A stretch of DNA of 64,000 nt. Origin: Candidatus Eiseniibacteriota bacterium. GTDB taxonomy: Bacteria > Eisenbacteria > RBG-16-71-46. Below are positions 45,915-56,819 of the stretch, one piece after another. The first letter of the stretch is position 1. The number at the start of each line of letters is the position of its first letter. The position numbers and the translations under genes are program-made. The notes below the pieces were generated by a model. It worked only from the letters and a program-made list of their open reading frames with translations, did no database searches and had not been told where the DNA came from. The stretch lies in the NCBI GenBank assembly GCA_963707915.1, contig OY970178.1, positions 928,001-992,000 on the forward strand. Reading direction: 5' to 3'.

Positions 45915-46643
45915 TCAGCTCAAGTCGAGGTACTTCAGGTCGAGCGGGACGAAGAGGCCGCCGCCCGGACCGCCGAACAGCTCGCCGCCGCGGCGCAGCG
46001 ACTCGGAGGGGATGTCCACCACCGGCACGTCGAGCTCCCCGGTGGCCGCGATCTTCGAGGTCGTCGGCAACGCGTAGCGCTCGCTGGCCAGGTAGTCCTC
46101 GAACTCGTCGAGGGTCCACGCGAAGAGCGCGTCCACTTCCCACATCAGGCGCACCTCCCGGCCCCGCGTCAGATCGGGCGGGTCGTCGGGGGCCGCGGGC
46201 ACGAGCGTGCCGACCGCGCAGCAGTCGCAGCCGAACCAGAACTCGAGCTCGCCCCTCAGCACCATGTTCTCGGCGATGCGCGCCTCGGTCGGGGCGTCCT
46301 TCCAAACGCTCATCAGGAGCTCGCTCAGCGCGAACTGGTAGCGCAGCAGGGCGCGGGGGTCGTCGTCGGCGGCGCCGCGCAACCCGGTCGCCAGCACGCG
46401 CAGGTTGCGGATCGCCTCGATGCGCACCCAGGGCGAGCGCCGGTCGCACAGCGCGTTCAGGTTCTTGAGCGTGCCGTCGAGCCGCTCGCGCACGACCACC
46501 AGCAGGTCCGCGAAGCTGCCCGCGTCCTTGTCGAGGAACTCGACGGTGCGACGCATCGCCTGGTTCAGCGGCAGGTACGCCGCGCGCAGCGTGCCCCAGT
46601 CCTCGGTCAGCCGCTGTTTCGCGATGACGTCCCAATCCGCCAT
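45915..46643 (-). CDS. Hypothetical cytoplasmic protein
   Basis: SD GGAGG before MADWDVIAK. Upstream -10 TATACT. Typical codon usage; FGCDCC motif. Confidence 0.7.
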   Translation of the reverse strand: MADWDVIAKQRLTEDWGTLRAAYLPLNQAMRRTVEFLDKDAGSFADLLVVVRERLDGTLKNLNALCDRRSPWVRIEAIRNLRVLATGLRGAADDDPRALLRYQFALSELLMSVWKDAPTEARIAENMVLRGELEFWFGCDCCAVGTLVPAAPDDPPDLTRGREVRLMWEVDALFAWTLDEFEDYLASERYALPTTSKIAATGELDVPVVDIPSESLRRGGELFGGPGGGLFVPLDLKYLDLS

Positions 46644-46815
46644 GGTGGATCCTCCCCTGCTCAGGATGCGCTGCGATCTCGTCGGCAGTATAGCGAAGGC
46701 TCGCCGCGGCGGTCCACCCGCCGCGCCGGTGGCGCCAGCGGAGCCGGGGCGCGTGCTATGCTGTGTCCGCTTCCCGTTCCGACCCACCCCCGTCCCATCC
46801 GCCCGGAGGAACGCC

Positions 46816-47934
46816 ATGCGCGACGCGCGCAACGCCCGGCTGGCCCAGGTCATCATCCACCATTCGACGCGGCTCCAGCCCGGCGAGGCCATCCTCATCG
46901 AGGCCTTCGACCTGCAGGGCGGGCTCGTGCACGACCTGGTGGAGGAGGCCTGCCGGGCGGGCGGAGTCCCGCTGGTCCAGCTCCGCGCCAACCCGGTCAT
47001 CCGCCAGGTGCTGGTGAGCGGCGGCGAGGCGCAGATCCGCCTGCAGGCCGAGGTCGAGCTCTTCCAGATGAAGAAGGTGCAGGCCTACGTCGGGCTGCGC
47101 GCCTCGGACAACGTCTCCGAGCTCGGCGACGTGCCCTCCGCGCAGCTCCAGCTCTACACCCGGCTCCTGCAGCAGCCGGTCCACCTCGACCAGCGGGTGA
47201 ACCACACCAAGTGGGTGGTGCTGCGCTACCCCACGCCCGCGATGGCCCAGCTCGCCGGCATGAGCACCGCGCGGTTCGAGGAGTTCTTCTACCGCGTCTG
47301 CACCCTGGACTACGGCCGCATGGCCGAGGCCATCGTGCCGCTCGCGGAGCGCATGCGGCGCACCGACCAGGTGCGCATCACCGGTCCCGGCACCGACCTG
47401 CGCTTCCGCATCCGCGGGATGGGCGTGATGCCGTGCGAGGGCCGCCGCAACCTCCCCGACGGGGAGTGCTACACCGCCCCGCTGCGCGACTCGGTCGAGG
47501 GCACCATCACCTACAACACCCCCTCGCTCTACCTCGGGACGACCTACGGCGGGATCTCCTTCACGTTCGAGGGCGGCCGGATCGTGAGGGCCAAGGGCGA
47601 CCCGCAGGACCGGCTGGACGCCCTGCTCGACACCGACGAGGGGGCGCGCTTCGTCGGGGAGTTCGCGCTGGGCTTCAACCCCTTCATCCTCGAGCCCATG
47701 AAGGACACGCTCTTCGACGAGAAGATCGCCGGCTCGCTCCACCTGACGCCGGGGCAGGCGTACAAGGCCGCGGACAACGGCAACCAGTCGCAGATCCACT
47801 GGGACCTGGTGCTCATCCAGCGGCCCGAGTACGGGGGCGGCGAGGTCCGGTTCGACGGGGAGCTGGTCCGCAAGGACGGCCGCTTCGTGCTGCCGGAGCT
47901 CGAGGGCCTGAACCCCGAGAGCCTCGGGACCTAG
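46816..47934 (+). CDS. M29 family aminopeptidase (AmpS/PepS-like)
   Basis: SD GGAGG. MRDARNARLA, WVVLRYPT, GTDLRF, NLPDGE, GEFALG, LFDEKIAGSLHLTPG, SQIHWD. Confidence 0.92.
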   Translation: MRDARNARLAQVIIHHSTRLQPGEAILIEAFDLQGGLVHDLVEEACRAGGVPLVQLRANPVIRQVLVSGGEAQIRLQAEVELFQMKKVQAYVGLRASDNVSELGDVPSAQLQLYTRLLQQPVHLDQRVNHTKWVVLRYPTPAMAQLAGMSTARFEEFFYRVCTLDYGRMAEAIVPLAERMRRTDQVRITGPGTDLRFRIRGMGVMPCEGRRNLPDGECYTAPLRDSVEGTITYNTPSLYLGTTYGGISFTFEGGRIVRAKGDPQDRLDALLDTDEGARFVGEFALGFNPFILEPMKDTLFDEKIAGSLHLTPGQAYKAADNGNQSQIHWDLVLIQRPEYGGGEVRFDGELVRKDGRFVLPELEGLNPESLGT

Positions 47935-47937
47935 CCG

Positions 47938-49881
47938 ATGATCCAGTTGCAGGGACTGCGCTACTCCATCGGCGAGCGCCTGCTCCTGGAGGACGTCGAC
48001 TGGGTCCTCTCCCCCGGCGACCGCTGCGCCCTGGTCGGGTCGAACGGCACCGGCAAGACCACGTTGCTGCGGCTCATGCTGGGCCAGCTCGTGCCCGACT
48101 CGGGGACGCGCGTGCTGGCCCGGGGCGCGCGCGTCGGCTACCTGCCCCAGGAGGCGGCCGAGCGCTACGACGGCACCGTGCTCGAGCGCGCCATGGAGGC
48201 GTACCACGGGTTGCTCGCCATGCGCGAGGAGCTGGACGCGCTGCACCAGCGGCTCGGCGGCATCGCCCCCGACGACCCGGCGCTCGAGCACCTGCTCGAG
48301 CGCACCGGCGAGCTCCAGCACCACCTCGAGCTGGCCGACGAGCACGCGCTGGAGCCGGAGGCGCGGCGCGTGCTCTCCGGGCTCGGCTTCTCGTTGCGCG
48401 ACCAGGACCGGCCGCTGGCGCGGTTCTCCGGCGGCTGGCGCATGCGCGCCGCGCTGGCCGCCCTGCTGCTGGCCGACCCCACGCTGCTGTTCCTCGACGA
48501 GCCCACCAACCACCTCGACCTGCCCGCGATGGAGTGGATGGAGGACTACCTCGAGGACTTCCACGGCGCGCTGGTCGCGGTCTCGCACGACCGCGTCTTC
48601 CTCGACCGCGTGGCCGACGAGGTGCGCGAGCTCGAGGCGGGCCACCTCACGGTCTTCGCCACCAACTTCACCGGCTACCTCGAGGAACGCGGGCTGCGGC
48701 GCGAGCGCATCGAGGCGCAGAACGAGCAGGTCGAGAAGAAGATCGCCCAGCTGTCGCGCTTCGTCGAGCGCTTCGGGGCCAAGAACACCAAGGCCAGCCA
48801 GGCGCAGAGCAAGCGCAAGCAGATCGAGCGGCTGCGGACGCAGCGCGTCGTGCTGCCGCGCCGGCCGCGCGGCATCCGCTTCCAGTTCCCCGCGCCCCCC
48901 CACTGCGGACGCACGCTGGTGCGCCTGCGCGGGGCGGCCTTCGGCTACGACGAGACCGACGTCTTCGCCGACGCCACCCTCGAGATCGAGCGCGGCGACA
49001 AGTTCGCCATCGTCGGCGCGAACGGCGCCGGCAAGACCACGCTGCTGCGCGTGCTGGCCGGACAGCTCGCGACCCGCCGCGGCGAGCGCGAGGCCGTTCT
49101 CCACACGCACATGGCCTACTTCGCCCAGCACGCCGCCGAGGCCCTCGACGGCTCGGACACCGTGCTCGATTCGCTCGACGCCATCGCGCCTCCGGAGTGG
49201 CGCCCACGCCTGCGCTCGCTGCTGGGCAACTTCCTGTTCAGCGGCGACGACGTGTTCAAGCTGGTGCGGGTCCTCTCCGGCGGGGAGCGCCAGCGGGTCG
49301 CGCTGGCGCGCACGCTGATGGAGCCCGCCAACCTGCTGCTGCTCGACGAGCCGACGCACCACCTCGACCTCGCCGGCAAGGAGGTGCTCGAGGACGCGCT
49401 GGTCCAGTACCCGGGCGCGCTGATCGTCGTCACCCACGACCGCTCGCTGATGGCGCGGGTCGCCACGCGGGTGATCGAGGTGAGCGACGGTCGCGTCACC
49501 CTCTACCCCGGCGGCTACGACGACTACGAGGCGGCGCGGCTGGCGCGCGCGGGGGCCGGGGCGAAGGCCCCGCCGTCGGCGAGCGAGGCTCCGGCCCACG
49601 GCGGGGCCCCTGCCGCCCCGGCGGCGAAGGAGGAGCGGCGCGGCGCGGCCGCGCACGAGCAGGCCCGCCGGGCGCAGGCGGTGGAGCGCAAGCGCACGCG
49701 GGAGGTCGAACGGATCGGGCACGACATCGAGGTCCGCGAGTCGAAGCTGCGAGAGCTGGAGGCCCAGCTCGCCGACCCGGACGTCTACCAGGACGGCGCC
49801 CGGGCCCGGGACCTGGTCACCCGCTACGAGCGGCTGCGGGCCGAAGTCGAATCGCTGTGGCAGCGGCTCGGCGAGTTGTGA
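47938..49881 (+). CDS. ABC-F family ATPase
   Basis: Two ABC domains (GSNGTGKTT / FSGGWRMR / LDEPTNHLD and GANGAGKTT / LSGGERQR / LDEPTHHLD), no TM segments, C-terminal coiled-coil. Confidence 0.95.
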
Positions 49882-49940
49882 CGGTGCGGCGCTCGTCCGG
49901 CGGGCCGGCACGTCCGGCGCGGGCCCGTGAATCGTCCGGG

Positions 49941-50690
49941 CTAGGGACCGCCCTGCACGATCCAGCGCACGAGAACGGTGGTCACCACGGCCCAGGACAC
50001 GCTCGCCAGGGAGCCCACGAGGTAGTACTCGGACAGTTCCCGGCCCCCGCCCTCCCGCGACTCGGGTAGCCGGAGGATGGCCTTCGCGGCGATCACGAGT
50101 CCTACGAGGGCTTCGAACCGCAGCAGGATCGCGACGAACACCAGGGTGCGCTCGAGCAGGCCGATCGCGCGCCCCGCGCTCAACAGACCGGGTCGCGGCT
50201 GCTTCAGCAGGTCCTCGAGATGCGGGGTCAGCGGTCCCACGACACGCCCGACGACCACCGCCCCCGCCCACACGCAGGTGATGAACCCGGCCACCAGGGC
50301 GTAGACCCGGACATCCATCCCGGCACGTGCCAGGAGCGCCGGCAGCTCCGCCGCCGCACCGGGGGTCACCCAGACGGAGACCAGGCCGAACGCGGCCAGG
50401 TGAGCGGACTGGTCGATGACCAGGGTCCGGAGGGAGCGGGTCGCGAAGCGGCTCGTCATCCAATCGAGGAGGGCGTGCGCGGCAAGGACCAGCGCGCAGC
50501 CCCACCACAGGACCGGGGTCGGCGGAGTCGTGGCGACGACGATCGCGAGCAGGAGGACCAGGTGGATCGCCAGGTGGAGGGCGAGCGGGCCGGGCCGGTG
50601 CTTCTCCTGCGCCTGCCCGCGGGTCTGCAGGAGGAAGTCCCCGATCAAATGGGCGGTCAGGAACTTCAGGAACGCGAGCAGGAGCGTCAT
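49941..50690 (-). CDS. DUF3307-family membrane protein
   Basis: AHLIGDFLLQ, HLAIH, HALLD, DQSAH, then GRAIGLLER...AAKAILR...SEYYLVGSLAS. ATGA-coupled to satD. Confidence 0.88.
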   Translation of the reverse strand: MTLLLAFLKFLTAHLIGDFLLQTRGQAQEKHRPGPLALHLAIHLVLLLAIVVATTPPTPVLWWGCALVLAAHALLDWMTSRFATRSLRTLVIDQSAHLAAFGLVSVWVTPGAAAELPALLARAGMDVRVYALVAGFITCVWAGAVVVGRVVGPLTPHLEDLLKQPRPGLLSAGRAIGLLERTLVFVAILLRFEALVGLVIAAKAILRLPESREGGGRELSEYYLVGSLASVSWAVVTTVLVRWIVQGGP

Positions 50691-51424
50691 CGCGTTCGCC
50701 TTCCCGGGCGCGAAACCCCGGATTCAACCTTGAGGGGTTGAGCGGGCCCGCGGGCCGCGTCGCCCGCGTCGCCCCGGGAGGGCATTCCCCCGCTCGAGGA
50801 CTCCAGCAGGCGCATCGCCCCCAGCGCCTCGTTCCAGGACGCGGCGCGCAGGCGCTTGGAGACGGACTGGAACGTGACGCCGCTGCGGCGGGCGATGTCG
50901 TCCATGCCACGCGTCTCGAGGCGCCCGGCCACCGCTTCCCACTGTGCCGGCGTCCAGCGGTTCATGATCGCGTCCAGCAGGGGCAACATCGAACCCGCCC
51001 AGCGGTCGAACAGGGGATCACCGGTGACCCAGCCCGTCAGGCGGCCGGCCTTCAGCCCTTCGATCGCGGCACGCGCGCGATGGAAGGCCTCCCCCTCGGA
51101 GGCAAACGGACCCTTGGGACTCATCCGGACGATGCGCCCCGCGCCGAGGCCGACCCTCAGCCGCATCCGCCGGCCTTCGCGCCCCGCCAGTTGGGCTCGC
51201 AGGTACGTCAGGATGGTCAGCGCCGGGGCATCGGGGCGCAGGACCGCCTGCATCTCGTCGCCCTTCAGCACCTGGGGACCCAGGCGGAAGTGCCCTCGGT
51301 GGACGTGCAGGGTGCGGTCGATCGCCCTGGCCAGGGCCCGGTCCGCGCCTGCGCGATCCGCCGTGGGGATACTGCGCGAGGACACCAGGTCGGCAATGAA
51401 CACCTGCCATCGAGGGTTCTGCAT
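50687..51424 (-). CDS. satD: SatD family protein (cyclase-like palm domain plus C-terminal HTH)
   Basis: FIADLVSSR, KGDEMQAV, LRVGLGAG, EGEAFHRARAAIE, WTPAQ, and HTH MDDIARRSGVTFQSVSKRL. SD AGGAGG 7 nt before ATG 51424. Confidence 0.85.
   Translation of the reverse strand: MQNPRWQVFIADLVSSRSIPTADRAGADRALARAIDRTLHVHRGHFRLGPQVLKGDEMQAVLRPDAPALTILTYLRAQLAGREGRRMRLRVGLGAGRIVRMSPKGPFASEGEAFHRARAAIEGLKAGRLTGWVTGDPLFDRWAGSMLPLLDAIMNRWTPAQWEAVAGRLETRGMDDIARRSGVTFQSVSKRLRAASWNEALGAMRLLESSSGGMPSRGDAGDAARGPAQPLKVESGVSRPGRRTR
50721..50742. promoter_or_regulatory. Palindromic operator-like site 1 (TCAACC-N6-GGTTGA)
   Basis: gatTCAACCttgaggGGTTGAg, in the satD 3' tail about 30 nt before the DUF3307 start. 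Confidence 0.65.
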
Positions 51425-51426
51425 CA

Positions 51427-51448
51427 CTCAACCTCCTAGGGTTGAATC
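51427..51448. promoter_or_regulatory. Palindromic operator-like site 2 overlapping the satD SD
   Basis: cTCAACCtcctagGGTTGAatc. The minus-strand AGGAGG lies in the spacer and stem. Confidence 0.7.
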
Positions 51449-51450
51449 TA

Positions 51451-51478
51451 CATATTCAACCTTCTGGGGCTGAATGTG
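51451..51478. promoter_or_regulatory. Palindromic operator-like site 3 overlapping the satD -10 box and predicted TSS
   Basis: catatTCAACCttctggGGCTGAatgtg, a near-perfect 28-bp dyad. Confidence 0.65.
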
Positions 51479-51501
51479 CCACCCTCCGGCGGGCCTGTCA
51501 A
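51473..51501 (-). promoter_or_regulatory. Sigma70 promoter of satD-DUF3307
   Basis: Minus strand: perfect TTGACA (51501-51496), 17 nt ending in TGG, then CACATT (51478-51473). Confidence 0.6.
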
Positions 51502-51523
51502 GGGTTCCTGCCGGCCGTGCGGA

Positions 51524-51553
51524 TTGACGTCCCCGCACCCGCCGGGATAGTCT
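51524..51553 (+). promoter_or_regulatory. Sigma70 promoter, probably leaderless, for the BMC-T gene
   Basis: TTGACG-N18-TAGTCT, 7 nt before ATG 51561, no SD. Confidence 0.6.
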
Positions 51554-51560
51554 CCGTTTC

Positions 51561-52193
51561 ATGGCCGACGTCACCCTGCGCACCTACGTCTTCCTCGACG
51601 ACCTGCAGCCGCAGCTCGCCGCGTTCGTGGGCACGACCGCCCGGGGCTTCCTGCCCGTGGCCGGCGTCGCCTCGCTGTTCGTCGAGATCGCCCCGGGGCT
51701 GATCATCAACCAGCTCATGGACGTGGCCCTCAAGGCCACGAGCTGCACGCCGGCCATCATGGTGGTCGAGCGCGCGTTCGGCATGCTCGAGATCCACGAG
51801 TGGGACAAGGGCCAGGTGCAGACCGGCGGGCAGGCCGTGCTGGACTACCTGAAGCTCGAGGAGCACGACCGCATGAAGCCCCGCGTGGTCTCCGACCAGG
51901 TCATCCGCTCGGTGGAGCCCTACCACGCGCAGCTGATCAACAAGATCCGCTACGGCGACCAACTGCTCCCCGGCGAGTCGCTGCTGATCCTCGAGAGCGA
52001 GCCCGCCGCCTACATCGCCTTCGCCGCGAACCAGGCCCTGAAGTCCGCGCACGTGAAGCTCATCGACGCGCAGCTCTTCGGCGCCTACGGCCGGCTCTAC
52101 CTGTCGGGCCCGGAAGCCGAGATCGACGCCGCGCGCGACGGCGCCCTGCGCAGCCTCGAGACCATCAAGGGCCGGGACCCGGCGAAGGGCTGA
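51561..52193 (+). CDS. Bacterial microcompartment shell protein, tandem permuted BMC-T (CsoS1D/CcmP-like)
   Basis: LRTYVFLDDLQPQLAAF, SLFVEIAPG, VVERAFGMLE, LLPGESLLILESEPAAY..AANQA, FGAYGRLYLSG. Confidence 0.9.
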   Translation: MADVTLRTYVFLDDLQPQLAAFVGTTARGFLPVAGVASLFVEIAPGLIINQLMDVALKATSCTPAIMVVERAFGMLEIHEWDKGQVQTGGQAVLDYLKLEEHDRMKPRVVSDQVIRSVEPYHAQLINKIRYGDQLLPGESLLILESEPAAYIAFAANQALKSAHVKLIDAQLFGAYGRLYLSGPEAEIDAARDGALRSLETIKGRDPAKG

Positions 52194-52279: not shown

Positions 52280-53362
52280 TCAGAACACCACGTACGCCCC
52301 GTCGCGGATGACCGCCTTCCTTCCGGCCGGGCCCACCACCACGGCCTCGGCCACCTGGATCGGGTTGCCCTTCGCGTAGACGATGTCCTGGTGCACGACG
52401 TTTCCCGGCTCGAGGAACTGCTTCACGCCGGTCACGCCGCCGAGGTGGTCCGAGCGCCCGTAGGCCCAGTGGAACCCGGCCTTCTCGTCCTCCAGCGTGT
52501 TGCCCGTGACCACGGCCCAGTCGTTGCAGCCGAAGGCGACCTCCGCGATGTTGGCCCGGGCCGGGTCGGCGGCGAACCGGGCGCGCAGCTTCCCGGCCTC
52601 GGGCCCGCTGCCGTCGACCTTCGCGATGCGATTGGCCGCGACCGTGAGGACGACGAGCTCACCGGCGACTTCGACCGGCAGTTCGCCCGCGGTGCGCGAC
52701 GGCTCGCCGGGCTTCTCGCCCTCGTAGGGCACGATGAACGTCTCGCCCGAGGGCAGGTTGATGATCCGGTCGCCCTGCTTGCCGCGCGGCAGGTAGCCGT
52801 CGTCGACCTCGGCCTTGCGCCAGCGCAGGTCGAAGGAGCAGCGCTGCCCGGTGGAGAAGCGCACCTCCAGCCGCTCGGCGCCCGCGAGGGCCTGGTCGAG
52901 GATGGCGCAGCGGCGGGCCACCTCGCCGTAGTCGGCGGACAGGGCGCTCTGCTCCATGCGCCGCTCCAGCCCGGGCAGCGACGCGGCCCGGAAGTCGGCC
53001 TTCTTCCTGCAATACCCGTCGAGCGCCGCGGTGGCCGAGAACTCCGTCAGGAACAGCGCCAGGGTGCAGCCCAGCAGCGCCTCCTCCATCGCCAATTCCG
53101 CCCCCGCCTGCCTGCCGCTCGCGGGCAGATCGGCGCCGTTCGCGCCGGTGGCGGCGAAGGTCAGCAGGGGTCGCACCTCGAAGCTGCCCGGGCGGCCCAG
53201 CTCGGCGAACGCCTCGCGCCACTCGGCGGCCATCGCCCGGCGCTCCTTCCAGCGCGCATCGTCGGCGAGGGAGCCATGTGGCAGGTCGCAGGCCACGAGG
53301 ACGATCTCGCCCTGCTCCGTGCGGAACACGTCGGTCAGCAGCTTCTTGAGCTCGAAGGCCAT
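52280..53362 (-). CDS. Divergent M29-like (AmpS-type) aminopeptidase
   Basis: INLPSGE, NIAEVAFGCN, GNTLEDEK, FHWAYGRSDHLGG, VHQD metal-ligand-like motifs. Confidence 0.7.
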   Translation of the reverse strand: MAFELKKLLTDVFRTEQGEIVLVACDLPHGSLADDARWKERRAMAAEWREAFAELGRPGSFEVRPLLTFAATGANGADLPASGRQAGAELAMEEALLGCTLALFLTEFSATAALDGYCRKKADFRAASLPGLERRMEQSALSADYGEVARRCAILDQALAGAERLEVRFSTGQRCSFDLRWRKAEVDDGYLPRGKQGDRIINLPSGETFIVPYEGEKPGEPSRTAGELPVEVAGELVVLTVAANRIAKVDGSGPEAGKLRARFAADPARANIAEVAFGCNDWAVVTGNTLEDEKAGFHWAYGRSDHLGGVTGVKQFLEPGNVVHQDIVYAKGNPIQVAEAVVVGPAGRKAVIRDGAYVVF

Positions 53363-54090: not shown

Positions 54091-56658
<2,568 letters not shown>

Positions 56659-56819
56659 CGGCTCTCCCCCAGGTCCGGGGCCCGCGACGGTTCGGGGGCC
56701 GGGGAAGCGGCTCACACTACATGAGCCGCCCTTCCAGTCAATGGCGCGGGTGCGTCGGCCGGGGCAACCGGCTATCCCTTGGGACCACCGGCGGCAGTCA
56801 CCGCCGCCCTACCGCTCCC

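Follow-up and report, generated by a model that had tools for sequence, protein, structure and literature searches.

The stretch of DNA analysed here (64,000 nucleotides of contig OY970178.1 from a Candidatus Eiseniibacteriota bacterium; "the window") carries a two-gene unit in which satD is followed by a gene for a DUF3307 membrane protein, called the partner below. We regard it as reasonably probable that SatD is a ligand-sensing autorepressor that caps the production of a dosage-sensitive membrane partner. SatD would act as a one-component transcription factor, with a palm sensor half that has an intact two-Asp metal/nucleotide site and a C-terminal helix-turn-helix (HTH) through which a SatD dimer most likely contacts the palindrome ATTCAACC-N6-GGTTGAAT. 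Since two of these sites lie on the -10 element/transcription start and on the ribosome site of satD, and a third lies before the partner gene, this layout would let SatD shut down its own operon and, separately, hold back the partner. What switches repression may be a ligand, nucleotide or metal, bound at the palm site. Over-production of the partner would be harmful, and SatD would limit its level.

The open reading frame (ORF) list of the window gives two minus-strand frames, satD at 50687..51427 and the DUF3307 gene at 49941..50690. A sequence-only reading of this stretch had described two translationally coupled genes with a TTGACA promoter of their own, and both features are borne out. 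The genes share an ATGA stop/start overlap at 50687..50690 (minus strand), and a -4 overlap is common at other loci. The -35-like TTGACA is located at 51496..51501, and 17 nt past it follows a weak -10-like CACATT at 51473..51478 (both minus strand). A consensus promoter scan did not call this TTGACA/CACATT site, yet TTGAC is kept in 9/9 aligned relatives. The motifs quoted in the sequence-only reading (IADLVSSR, KGDEMQ, RVGLGAG, HxxxD, HxxxH, HxxxD and DQxxH) are all present in the translations. The satD coding sequence is listed with a GTG start at 51427; the likelier start is the ATG at 51424, which sits 7 nt past an AGGAGG (51432-51437) and gives a protein of 245 amino acids (aa), and homologues begin at MQNP. 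Both proteins pass the Pfam gathering thresholds: SatD matches PF16264 over residues 10-196 with E 2.4e-9 and 37.6 bits (cut-off 29), and with 36.6 bits when the whole genome is scanned, and the partner, a protein of 249 aa with about eight helices, matches PF11750 over residues 7-106 only, with E 9.4e-12 and 45.5 bits (cut-off 23). In NCBIfam neither SatD nor the DUF3307 partner has a model. Each family is represented by one copy in the 3.62-Mb, single-contig genome with 72% G+C content (GC), and the closest relatives are labelled Candidatus Eisenbacteria.

Three copies of the shared palindrome ATTCAACC-N6-GGTTGAAT were found at the pair. Operator O1 (ATTCAGCC-N6-GGTTGAAT, 51454..51475) begins inside the -10 hexamer, which its left arm overlaps. 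Operator O2 (ATTCAACC-CTAGGA-GGTTGAGT, 51426..51447) spans the Shine-Dalgarno (SD) sequence and start codon of satD, with AGGAGG and the start codon contained in its spacer and right arm. O1 and O2 are 28 bp apart, with six bases between them. Operator O3 (GCTCAACC-N6-GGTTGAAT, 50722..50743) lies within the 3′ end of satD, 31 nt before the partner ATG. In the window the palindrome gives 6 strand-wise matches (3 sites, both strands) against 0.05 expected. Genome-wide there are 2 perfect matches to TCAACC-N6-GGTTGA, which are O2 and O3, and O1 is one of 10 matches with one mismatch. Counting palindromes generically (arm 8, one mismatch) did not discriminate, with 54% of background windows positive, and stricter and GC-matched counts were used instead. 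The arrangement is conserved among related upstream regions, where TTGAC, N17, a CAtATT -10 element, O1, N6 and O2 with the SD sequence follow each other in 9/9 aligned sequences. In 7 of the 10 sequences examined there is a further site, either at the 3′ end of satD or at the ribosome site of the partner. The half-site varies between genomes (TTCAACC, TTCGCCC, TTCACCC), yet is alike among the sites of one genome, which suggests a single sequence-specific dimeric binder. The self-regulation that had been proposed from the sequence gains support from these three locus-specific operators. With an HTH in SatD and predicted operators on the promoter and the ribosome site, autorepression by SatD is the most likely mode of control, and SatD would be the protein that binds O1 to O3.

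For SatD, 117 diverse relatives were aligned, taken from 986 representative clusters at E ≤ 0.001. As a profile against the PDB sequences, this alignment matched the class III cyclases Rv1900c (1ybt, E 3e-4) and Ma1120 (4wp8/4wp9, E 6e-4), and further Rv1264 (1y10, E 0.011) and 3mr7 (E 0.03). A narrower alignment of close relatives, used in the same way, gave no match. In the profile alignment D12 and D56 of SatD coincide with the Asp residues of the cyclase FTDIVGST and GD motifs, respectively. These two metal Asp residues are conserved in 116/117 and 117/117 relatives, respectively, and other conserved positions are S16 (117/117), G111 (117/117) and Q59 (106/117). The AlphaFold2 model of SatD (predicted local distance difference test score (pLDDT) 89.6, predicted template-modelling score (pTM) 0.84) consists of a beta-alpha-beta-beta-alpha-beta palm, five helices and a disordered tail. 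The palm corresponds to 51020..51424 on the minus strand (residues 1-135, with D12, D56, S16, G94/G96 and G111). Foldseek with this model gave 74 PDB matches at E ≤ 0.001. The best of them (E 2e-5 to 5e-4) were Rv1625c, PycC, Ma1120, Rv1900c and PleD, and GGDEF domains and Cas10 were also matched. VIA-align gave Z 9.6-11.1, with Z 10-11 over 114-147 residues, and against cyclase homology domains 127-147 residues were aligned at Z 9.6-10.7 with a root-mean-square deviation (rmsd) of 2.3-4.0. Both structural tools thus place SatD on the palm fold of class III cyclases, and by sequence profile and predicted fold we assign its N-terminal domain as a class III cyclase/palm homologue.

The second half of SatD is a helical domain (residues 137-210, 50795..51016, minus strand) that is a predicted DNA-binding domain on the basis of profile matches and the helices of the model. 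Its residues ~155-205 match the HTH domains of GerE, NarL, sigma-70 region 4 and YlxM in the search with the diverse alignment. The cyclase- or palm-like Asp residues and the C-terminal HTH had been put forward from the sequence and hold up in these searches. Behind the HTH follows a disordered tail (50690..50794, minus strand; pLDDT < 60 from residue 211), in which the codons of AQPLKVES form O3. The tails of relatives are otherwise variable, with a recurring [RQH]P-x-x-[GV]-E motif, which is probably what the operator DNA at the satD 3′ end encodes. As a separate observation, a 290-aa protein (P0064) on a contig of 1165 bases combines a CDP-alcohol phosphatidyltransferase domain with a SatD fragment (89% identity, 41% of the query) and could be a real fusion or an artefact of assembly or gene calling.

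SatD has no Pfam match to the cyclase model PF00211, PF16264 being its sole match at E ≤ 0.01, and the comparison with known systems helps to place it. With the class III cyclases (1ybt, 4wp8 and Rv1625c, 7yz9) and the GGDEF domain of PleD it has in common the palm fold, the metal Asp residues in the same strands, beta1 and beta2/3, and a Gly-rich RxGxGxG strand, and the SatD family consensus RGDEF resembles GGDEF. In contrast to these cyclases, the SatD domain is short (~135 residues), lacks the dimer arm and any PF00211 or PF00990 match, has the catalytic Asn/Arg pair replaced and variable, and is fused to an HTH. D12, S16, D56 and G111 are kept and the Asn/Arg equivalents vary, which suggests that the metal/nucleotide site is under strong selection and the transition-state pair of cyclases is not. 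The Asn and Arg of the cyclase GxxxNxAxR helix are not kept in SatD, and because the equivalents are poorly conserved, canonical cyclase activity of SatD is doubtful. PucR/CdaR regulators (3onq) share the domain order of SatD, a cyclase-like (GGDEF-like) sensor and then a C-terminal HTH (Foldseek E 1.8e-4 over 242 columns). However, whole-chain superposition of SatD on 3onq is poor (rmsd 15, template-modelling (TM) score 0.25). PucR-family Pfam models do not match SatD, so we do not assign it to that family. PucR regulators have lost the metal Asp pair and are not known to have an obligate membrane partner. The Pfam name comes from the sat operon of Streptococcus mutans (satD-satE), whose SatD is in the same Pfam family and whose SatE is presumably a DUF3307-type partner.

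The partner is composed of two four-helix halves (AlphaFold2 pLDDT 94.5). The N-terminal half is the His/Asp-rich DUF3307 domain (50355..50690, minus strand), with H14, D18, Q22, H39, H72, D76, D93, Q94 and H97, and the C-terminal half (the C-module; 49944..50315, minus strand) carries G173, G177, E180, R181, K203, R207, Y222, G226 and S230. The His/Asp residues are invariant among close relatives, but occur in only about 30 of 52 aligned partners, whereas all nine C-module residues are invariant in 52/52. Searched with separate profiles, the C-module was present in 74/74 partners, while HxxxDxxxQ and DQxxH were both present in 14/74 and neither in 60/74. Two short partners consist of the C-module alone, one of 125 aa from a Hadarchaeota-labelled metagenome-assembled genome (MAG; L066, hhalign 99.7%, E 2e-25) and one of 93 aa (L040). 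SatD was found in 0/14 control genomes, whereas two of these genomes, Bacillus subtilis and Synechococcus elongatus, carry the DUF3307 His/Asp domain, so that the N-terminal domain also occurs where SatD is absent. The conserved core of the partner is the C-terminal four-helix module and not the His/Asp clusters, and an intramembrane metal site as the conserved core of the effector is not supported. For partners that lack the His/Asp domain no Pfam match was obtained at E ≤ 0.1, and the C-module is without a Pfam model. A search of a protein atlas returned DUF3307 clusters only, and for the C-terminal half only unnamed clusters scoring < 0.9. The structural likeness suggested in the sequence-only reading was seen for SatD, with its class III cyclase and GGDEF matches; for the partner, Foldseek returned nothing from the PDB at E ≤ 0.001. 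With VIA-wide the partner reached Z 8-8.9, and its C-terminal half recurrently matched RND/sterol-sensing transmembrane bundles (MmpL5, NPC1L1, SecDF, HpnN, Patched and Scap). These Z values are under the noise level that the tool states for helical bundles, and no fold is assigned to the partner. In the model, the charged invariant residues of the C-module are located where helices 167-189 and 216-246 begin and where helix 193-211 ends. The invariant Glu/Arg/Lys/Arg/Glu-Tyr residues would thus sit at helix ends on one face, predicted to be cytoplasmic by the positive-inside rule.

The association of the two genes is strict. Of 80 SatD loci spread over many phyla, 74 have the partner immediately behind satD in the same orientation, an adjacency that is far beyond chance and agrees with the earlier statement that the two families are often adjacent. 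SatD is present in 24/172 genomes of the phylum (20/121 high-quality genomes), 7/70 of the family and 0/6 congeners. The C-module is present in 26/172 phylum genomes, and comparing the two lists gives 22 genomes with both and 144 with neither. The pair in the window is flanked by a convergent gene for an ABC-F ATPase (47938..49881; NCBIfam 449 bits against a cut-off of 380) and a divergent gene for a CcmP-like BMC-domain protein (51561..52193, plus strand). An ABC-F gene adjoins the pair in the window and in four further loci (L004, L006, L009 and L010). In congener G113 the site is empty, since only 59 nt separate the ABC-F stop codon from the BMC promoter. Because the synteny is common to more distant relatives, loss of the pair from an ancestral site is the simpler reading of its patchiness in the genus, with insertion as a possible alternative. 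Apart from the pair, the gap between the ABC-F and BMC genes (49882-51523, compared with L084, L091 and L092) is a variable slot in the genus, holding a TPR-protein gene in G116 and a PMT_2 glycosyltransferase-like gene in G114. The GC of the cassette is 0.69-0.74 and equals the 0.72 of the genome, and a mobile cassette of foreign composition was rejected for the window.

Published data on satD bear on the putative dosage sensitivity of the partner. A full-text literature search returned no functional study of SatD or DUF3307, and none on fold, DNA sites or partner role. In a study of Streptococcus pyogenes (PMC11323703), satD is given as the single 'essential accessory' gene, present in 178/249 genomes, and SatD is linked by citation to acid tolerance. 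The supplementary tables of that study list satD (group_1290, operon o_0362) as 'Essential' in 9/9 transposon sequencing (Tn-seq) data sets and its sole operon mate, group_1858, as 'Non-essential' in 9/9. An essential satD with a non-essential mate is an antitoxin-like pattern and a hint at dosage sensitivity. Restraint of the partner would account for the status of satD as the single 'essential accessory' gene of S. pyogenes. The pair resembles type II and type VII toxin-antitoxin (TA) operons in that an upstream DNA-binding autoregulator, here predicted, overlaps a downstream gene, in that the pair is accessory and patchy, and in the S. pyogenes contrast between an 'Essential' upstream gene and a 'Non-essential' mate, as listed in those tables. 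It differs from them in that its synteny is partly conserved in the phylum (ABC-F beside five loci), no PADLOC or TA-family match was obtained, and toxicity of the partner and its neutralisation are hypothetical. The TA flavour of the sequence-only reading gains indirect support from the Tn-seq contrast and from the patchy distribution in the phylum.

Several points weigh against an autorepressor that restrains a harmful partner. The S. pyogenes tables describe group_1858 by the COG category 'OU' and not as a DUF3307 or C-module protein, and apparent Tn-seq essentiality of satD can have other causes. Five of the six SatD loci that lack a partner end at a contig edge. The remaining one (L069) alone has room for it, and no partner is recognisable in the ORF that follows its satD (hhalign probability 1.6%). 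At the palm site, the position of the cyclase Asn is taken by H115, with His in just 61/117 relatives, and R118 (83/117) is shifted by one residue. Ligand binding and catalysis at this site are both putative, as the Asn/Arg equivalents are variable. Across phyla, an xACC-N(1-10)-GGTx palindrome occurs at -120 to +20 of satD in 51/79 loci compared with 47/632 GC-matched control windows, an enrichment that is partly post hoc because the pattern was generalised after data inspection. The palindromes may also form mRNA hairpins, and O2 encloses the SD sequence.

The autorepressor reading and the alternatives to it are not all mutually exclusive. Information might flow in the opposite direction, with the membrane protein as the sensor that holds or releases SatD through its conserved, putatively cytoplasm-facing site, similar to Mlc-PtsG or anti-sigma sequestration, and with SatD merely reporting the state of the partner. 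The strict co-occurrence is consistent with such a role. Translational coupling would provide matched stoichiometry, the charged invariant residues of the C-module are grouped at the ends of helices on a single face, and the system looks self-contained because the operators are confined to the satD locus. On the other hand, contact between SatD and the partner is hypothetical and the topology of the partner is derived from its sequence alone. In addition, a regulator with its own operon as the sole target needs an output, which this scheme leaves unexplained. We consider it unlikely.

A second alternative treats SatD as a signal generator with nucleotidyl cyclase or transferase activity, the product of which would open or activate the partner in a defence pair similar to Pycsar or CBASS. 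The Pycsar cyclase PycC (7r65) is among the Foldseek matches with E 5.8e-5. Both metal Asp residues and S16 are near-invariant, which would be unusual in a purely degenerate sensor. A two-gene layout with a transmembrane partner and the patchiness in the phylum, with an empty site in one congener, would also fit. However, the transition-state Asn/Arg equivalents are not conserved, and SatD has an HTH with matching operators, which are absent from defence cyclases. Neither SatD nor the partner was matched by PADLOC at E ≤ 0.1, and DUF3307 is the sole Pfam domain of the partner, which leaves it without a recognised cyclic-nucleotide-binding domain. We therefore saw neither the curated defence model match nor the nucleotide-sensing effector domain by which Pycsar and CBASS systems are recognised. 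The neighbourhood does not resemble a defence island, either. Thirty loci were surveyed, 26 after dereplication at 55% SatD identity and 4 more from Eisenbacteria, with up to 3 ORFs on each side; a longest-ORF heuristic, used in place of a gene caller, picked 162 of 506 candidate ORFs. The neighbours are mostly housekeeping or metabolic genes, and none is common to all loci. About 7 of the 162 ORFs, at 6/30 loci, are TA-, defence- or mobile-like (ParD, resolvase, PIN, RAMP, Mut7-C RNase, WYL and FRG). The cassette has the native GC of the genome, and tblastn with SatD matched 2 plasmid records and 0 phage records. It seems quite unlikely that SatD acts in this way, and neither the cyclic-nucleotide defence suggested earlier nor a defence-island context is supported.

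Two individual loci have neighbours of note. In a Calditrichota MAG (L039:1145-5048) the pair stands beside RAMP-superfamily and CorA-like genes, possibly as an accessory set of a type III CRISPR system, the sole such case in the 30 loci. In a Verrucomicrobiota MAG (L041:5923-7281) a canonical class III cyclase (PF00211, E 1.7e-21) is encoded two genes upstream of satD, and SatD's own genome in the present case has no canonical PF00211 cyclase.

A bolder proposal joins repression and chemistry in a new TA-like unit, and we hold it to be just as improbable as signal generation. Here a cyclase-fold enzyme-repressor would silence a small pore-forming or ion-conducting module both by the three operators and by nucleotide chemistry, either through its product or through nucleotidyl modification at the invariant, putatively cytoplasmic Glu/Arg/Lys site. 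Loss of the nucleotide supply or of SatD would then free a lethal membrane activity. Control at the RNA level, with the palindromes as mRNA stem-loops that hide the ribosome sites of satD and the partner to regulate translation or RNA stability and with another target for the SatD HTH, is very unlikely: AGGAGG is found inside the loop and stem of O2, the partner SD lies within the third site in two relatives (L005 and L010) and the arm mismatches, used as a test of RNA pairing on few cases, lean towards G.U (6 compatible with G.U against 3 A.C), but the half-site is alike among the sites of one genome and shifts at all of them together from one genome to the next, which speaks for a single sequence-specific binder and not for pairing alone. 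Moreover, O1, which overlaps the -10 element, would be only partly transcribed, and O3 in the window holds no SD.

Our data indicate that satD and its partner form a real, widespread and little-studied two-gene unit that does not look like a phage-defence island. Relatives of SatD fall into 986 clusters at 50% identity from many bacterial phyla and at least one archaeal MAG. The domain picture is corrected in that the part of the partner kept alongside SatD is not the His/Asp DUF3307 domain but a module for which Pfam has no model. If the partner is toxic or ion-conducting, the pair would represent a new class of regulator and effector built on the cyclase fold. With the operator sequence, the two Asp residues and a minimal partner module of 125 residues, handles on the pair are now defined.

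Other genes around the pair were noted as well. The BMC gene encodes a tandem BMC-domain protein similar to the carboxysome shell protein CcmP (NCBIfam 254 bits, under the cut-off of 340; Pfam BMC E 1.8e-4), and a promoter, TTGACG-N16-GATAGT, is located before it at 51524-51551 on the plus strand. The ORF at 52280-53362 (minus strand) has a weak M29 aminopeptidase-like match under the cut-off (E 7.6e-4), and an M29 gene lies near the pair in L009 as well. Another neighbour of the pair in the window is the ORF at 46405-47934 (plus strand). Finally, an ORF of 874 aa at 54091-56715 (minus strand) shows, in its translation read by eye, protein-kinase motifs (HRDLKPEN) followed by a long C-terminal region.

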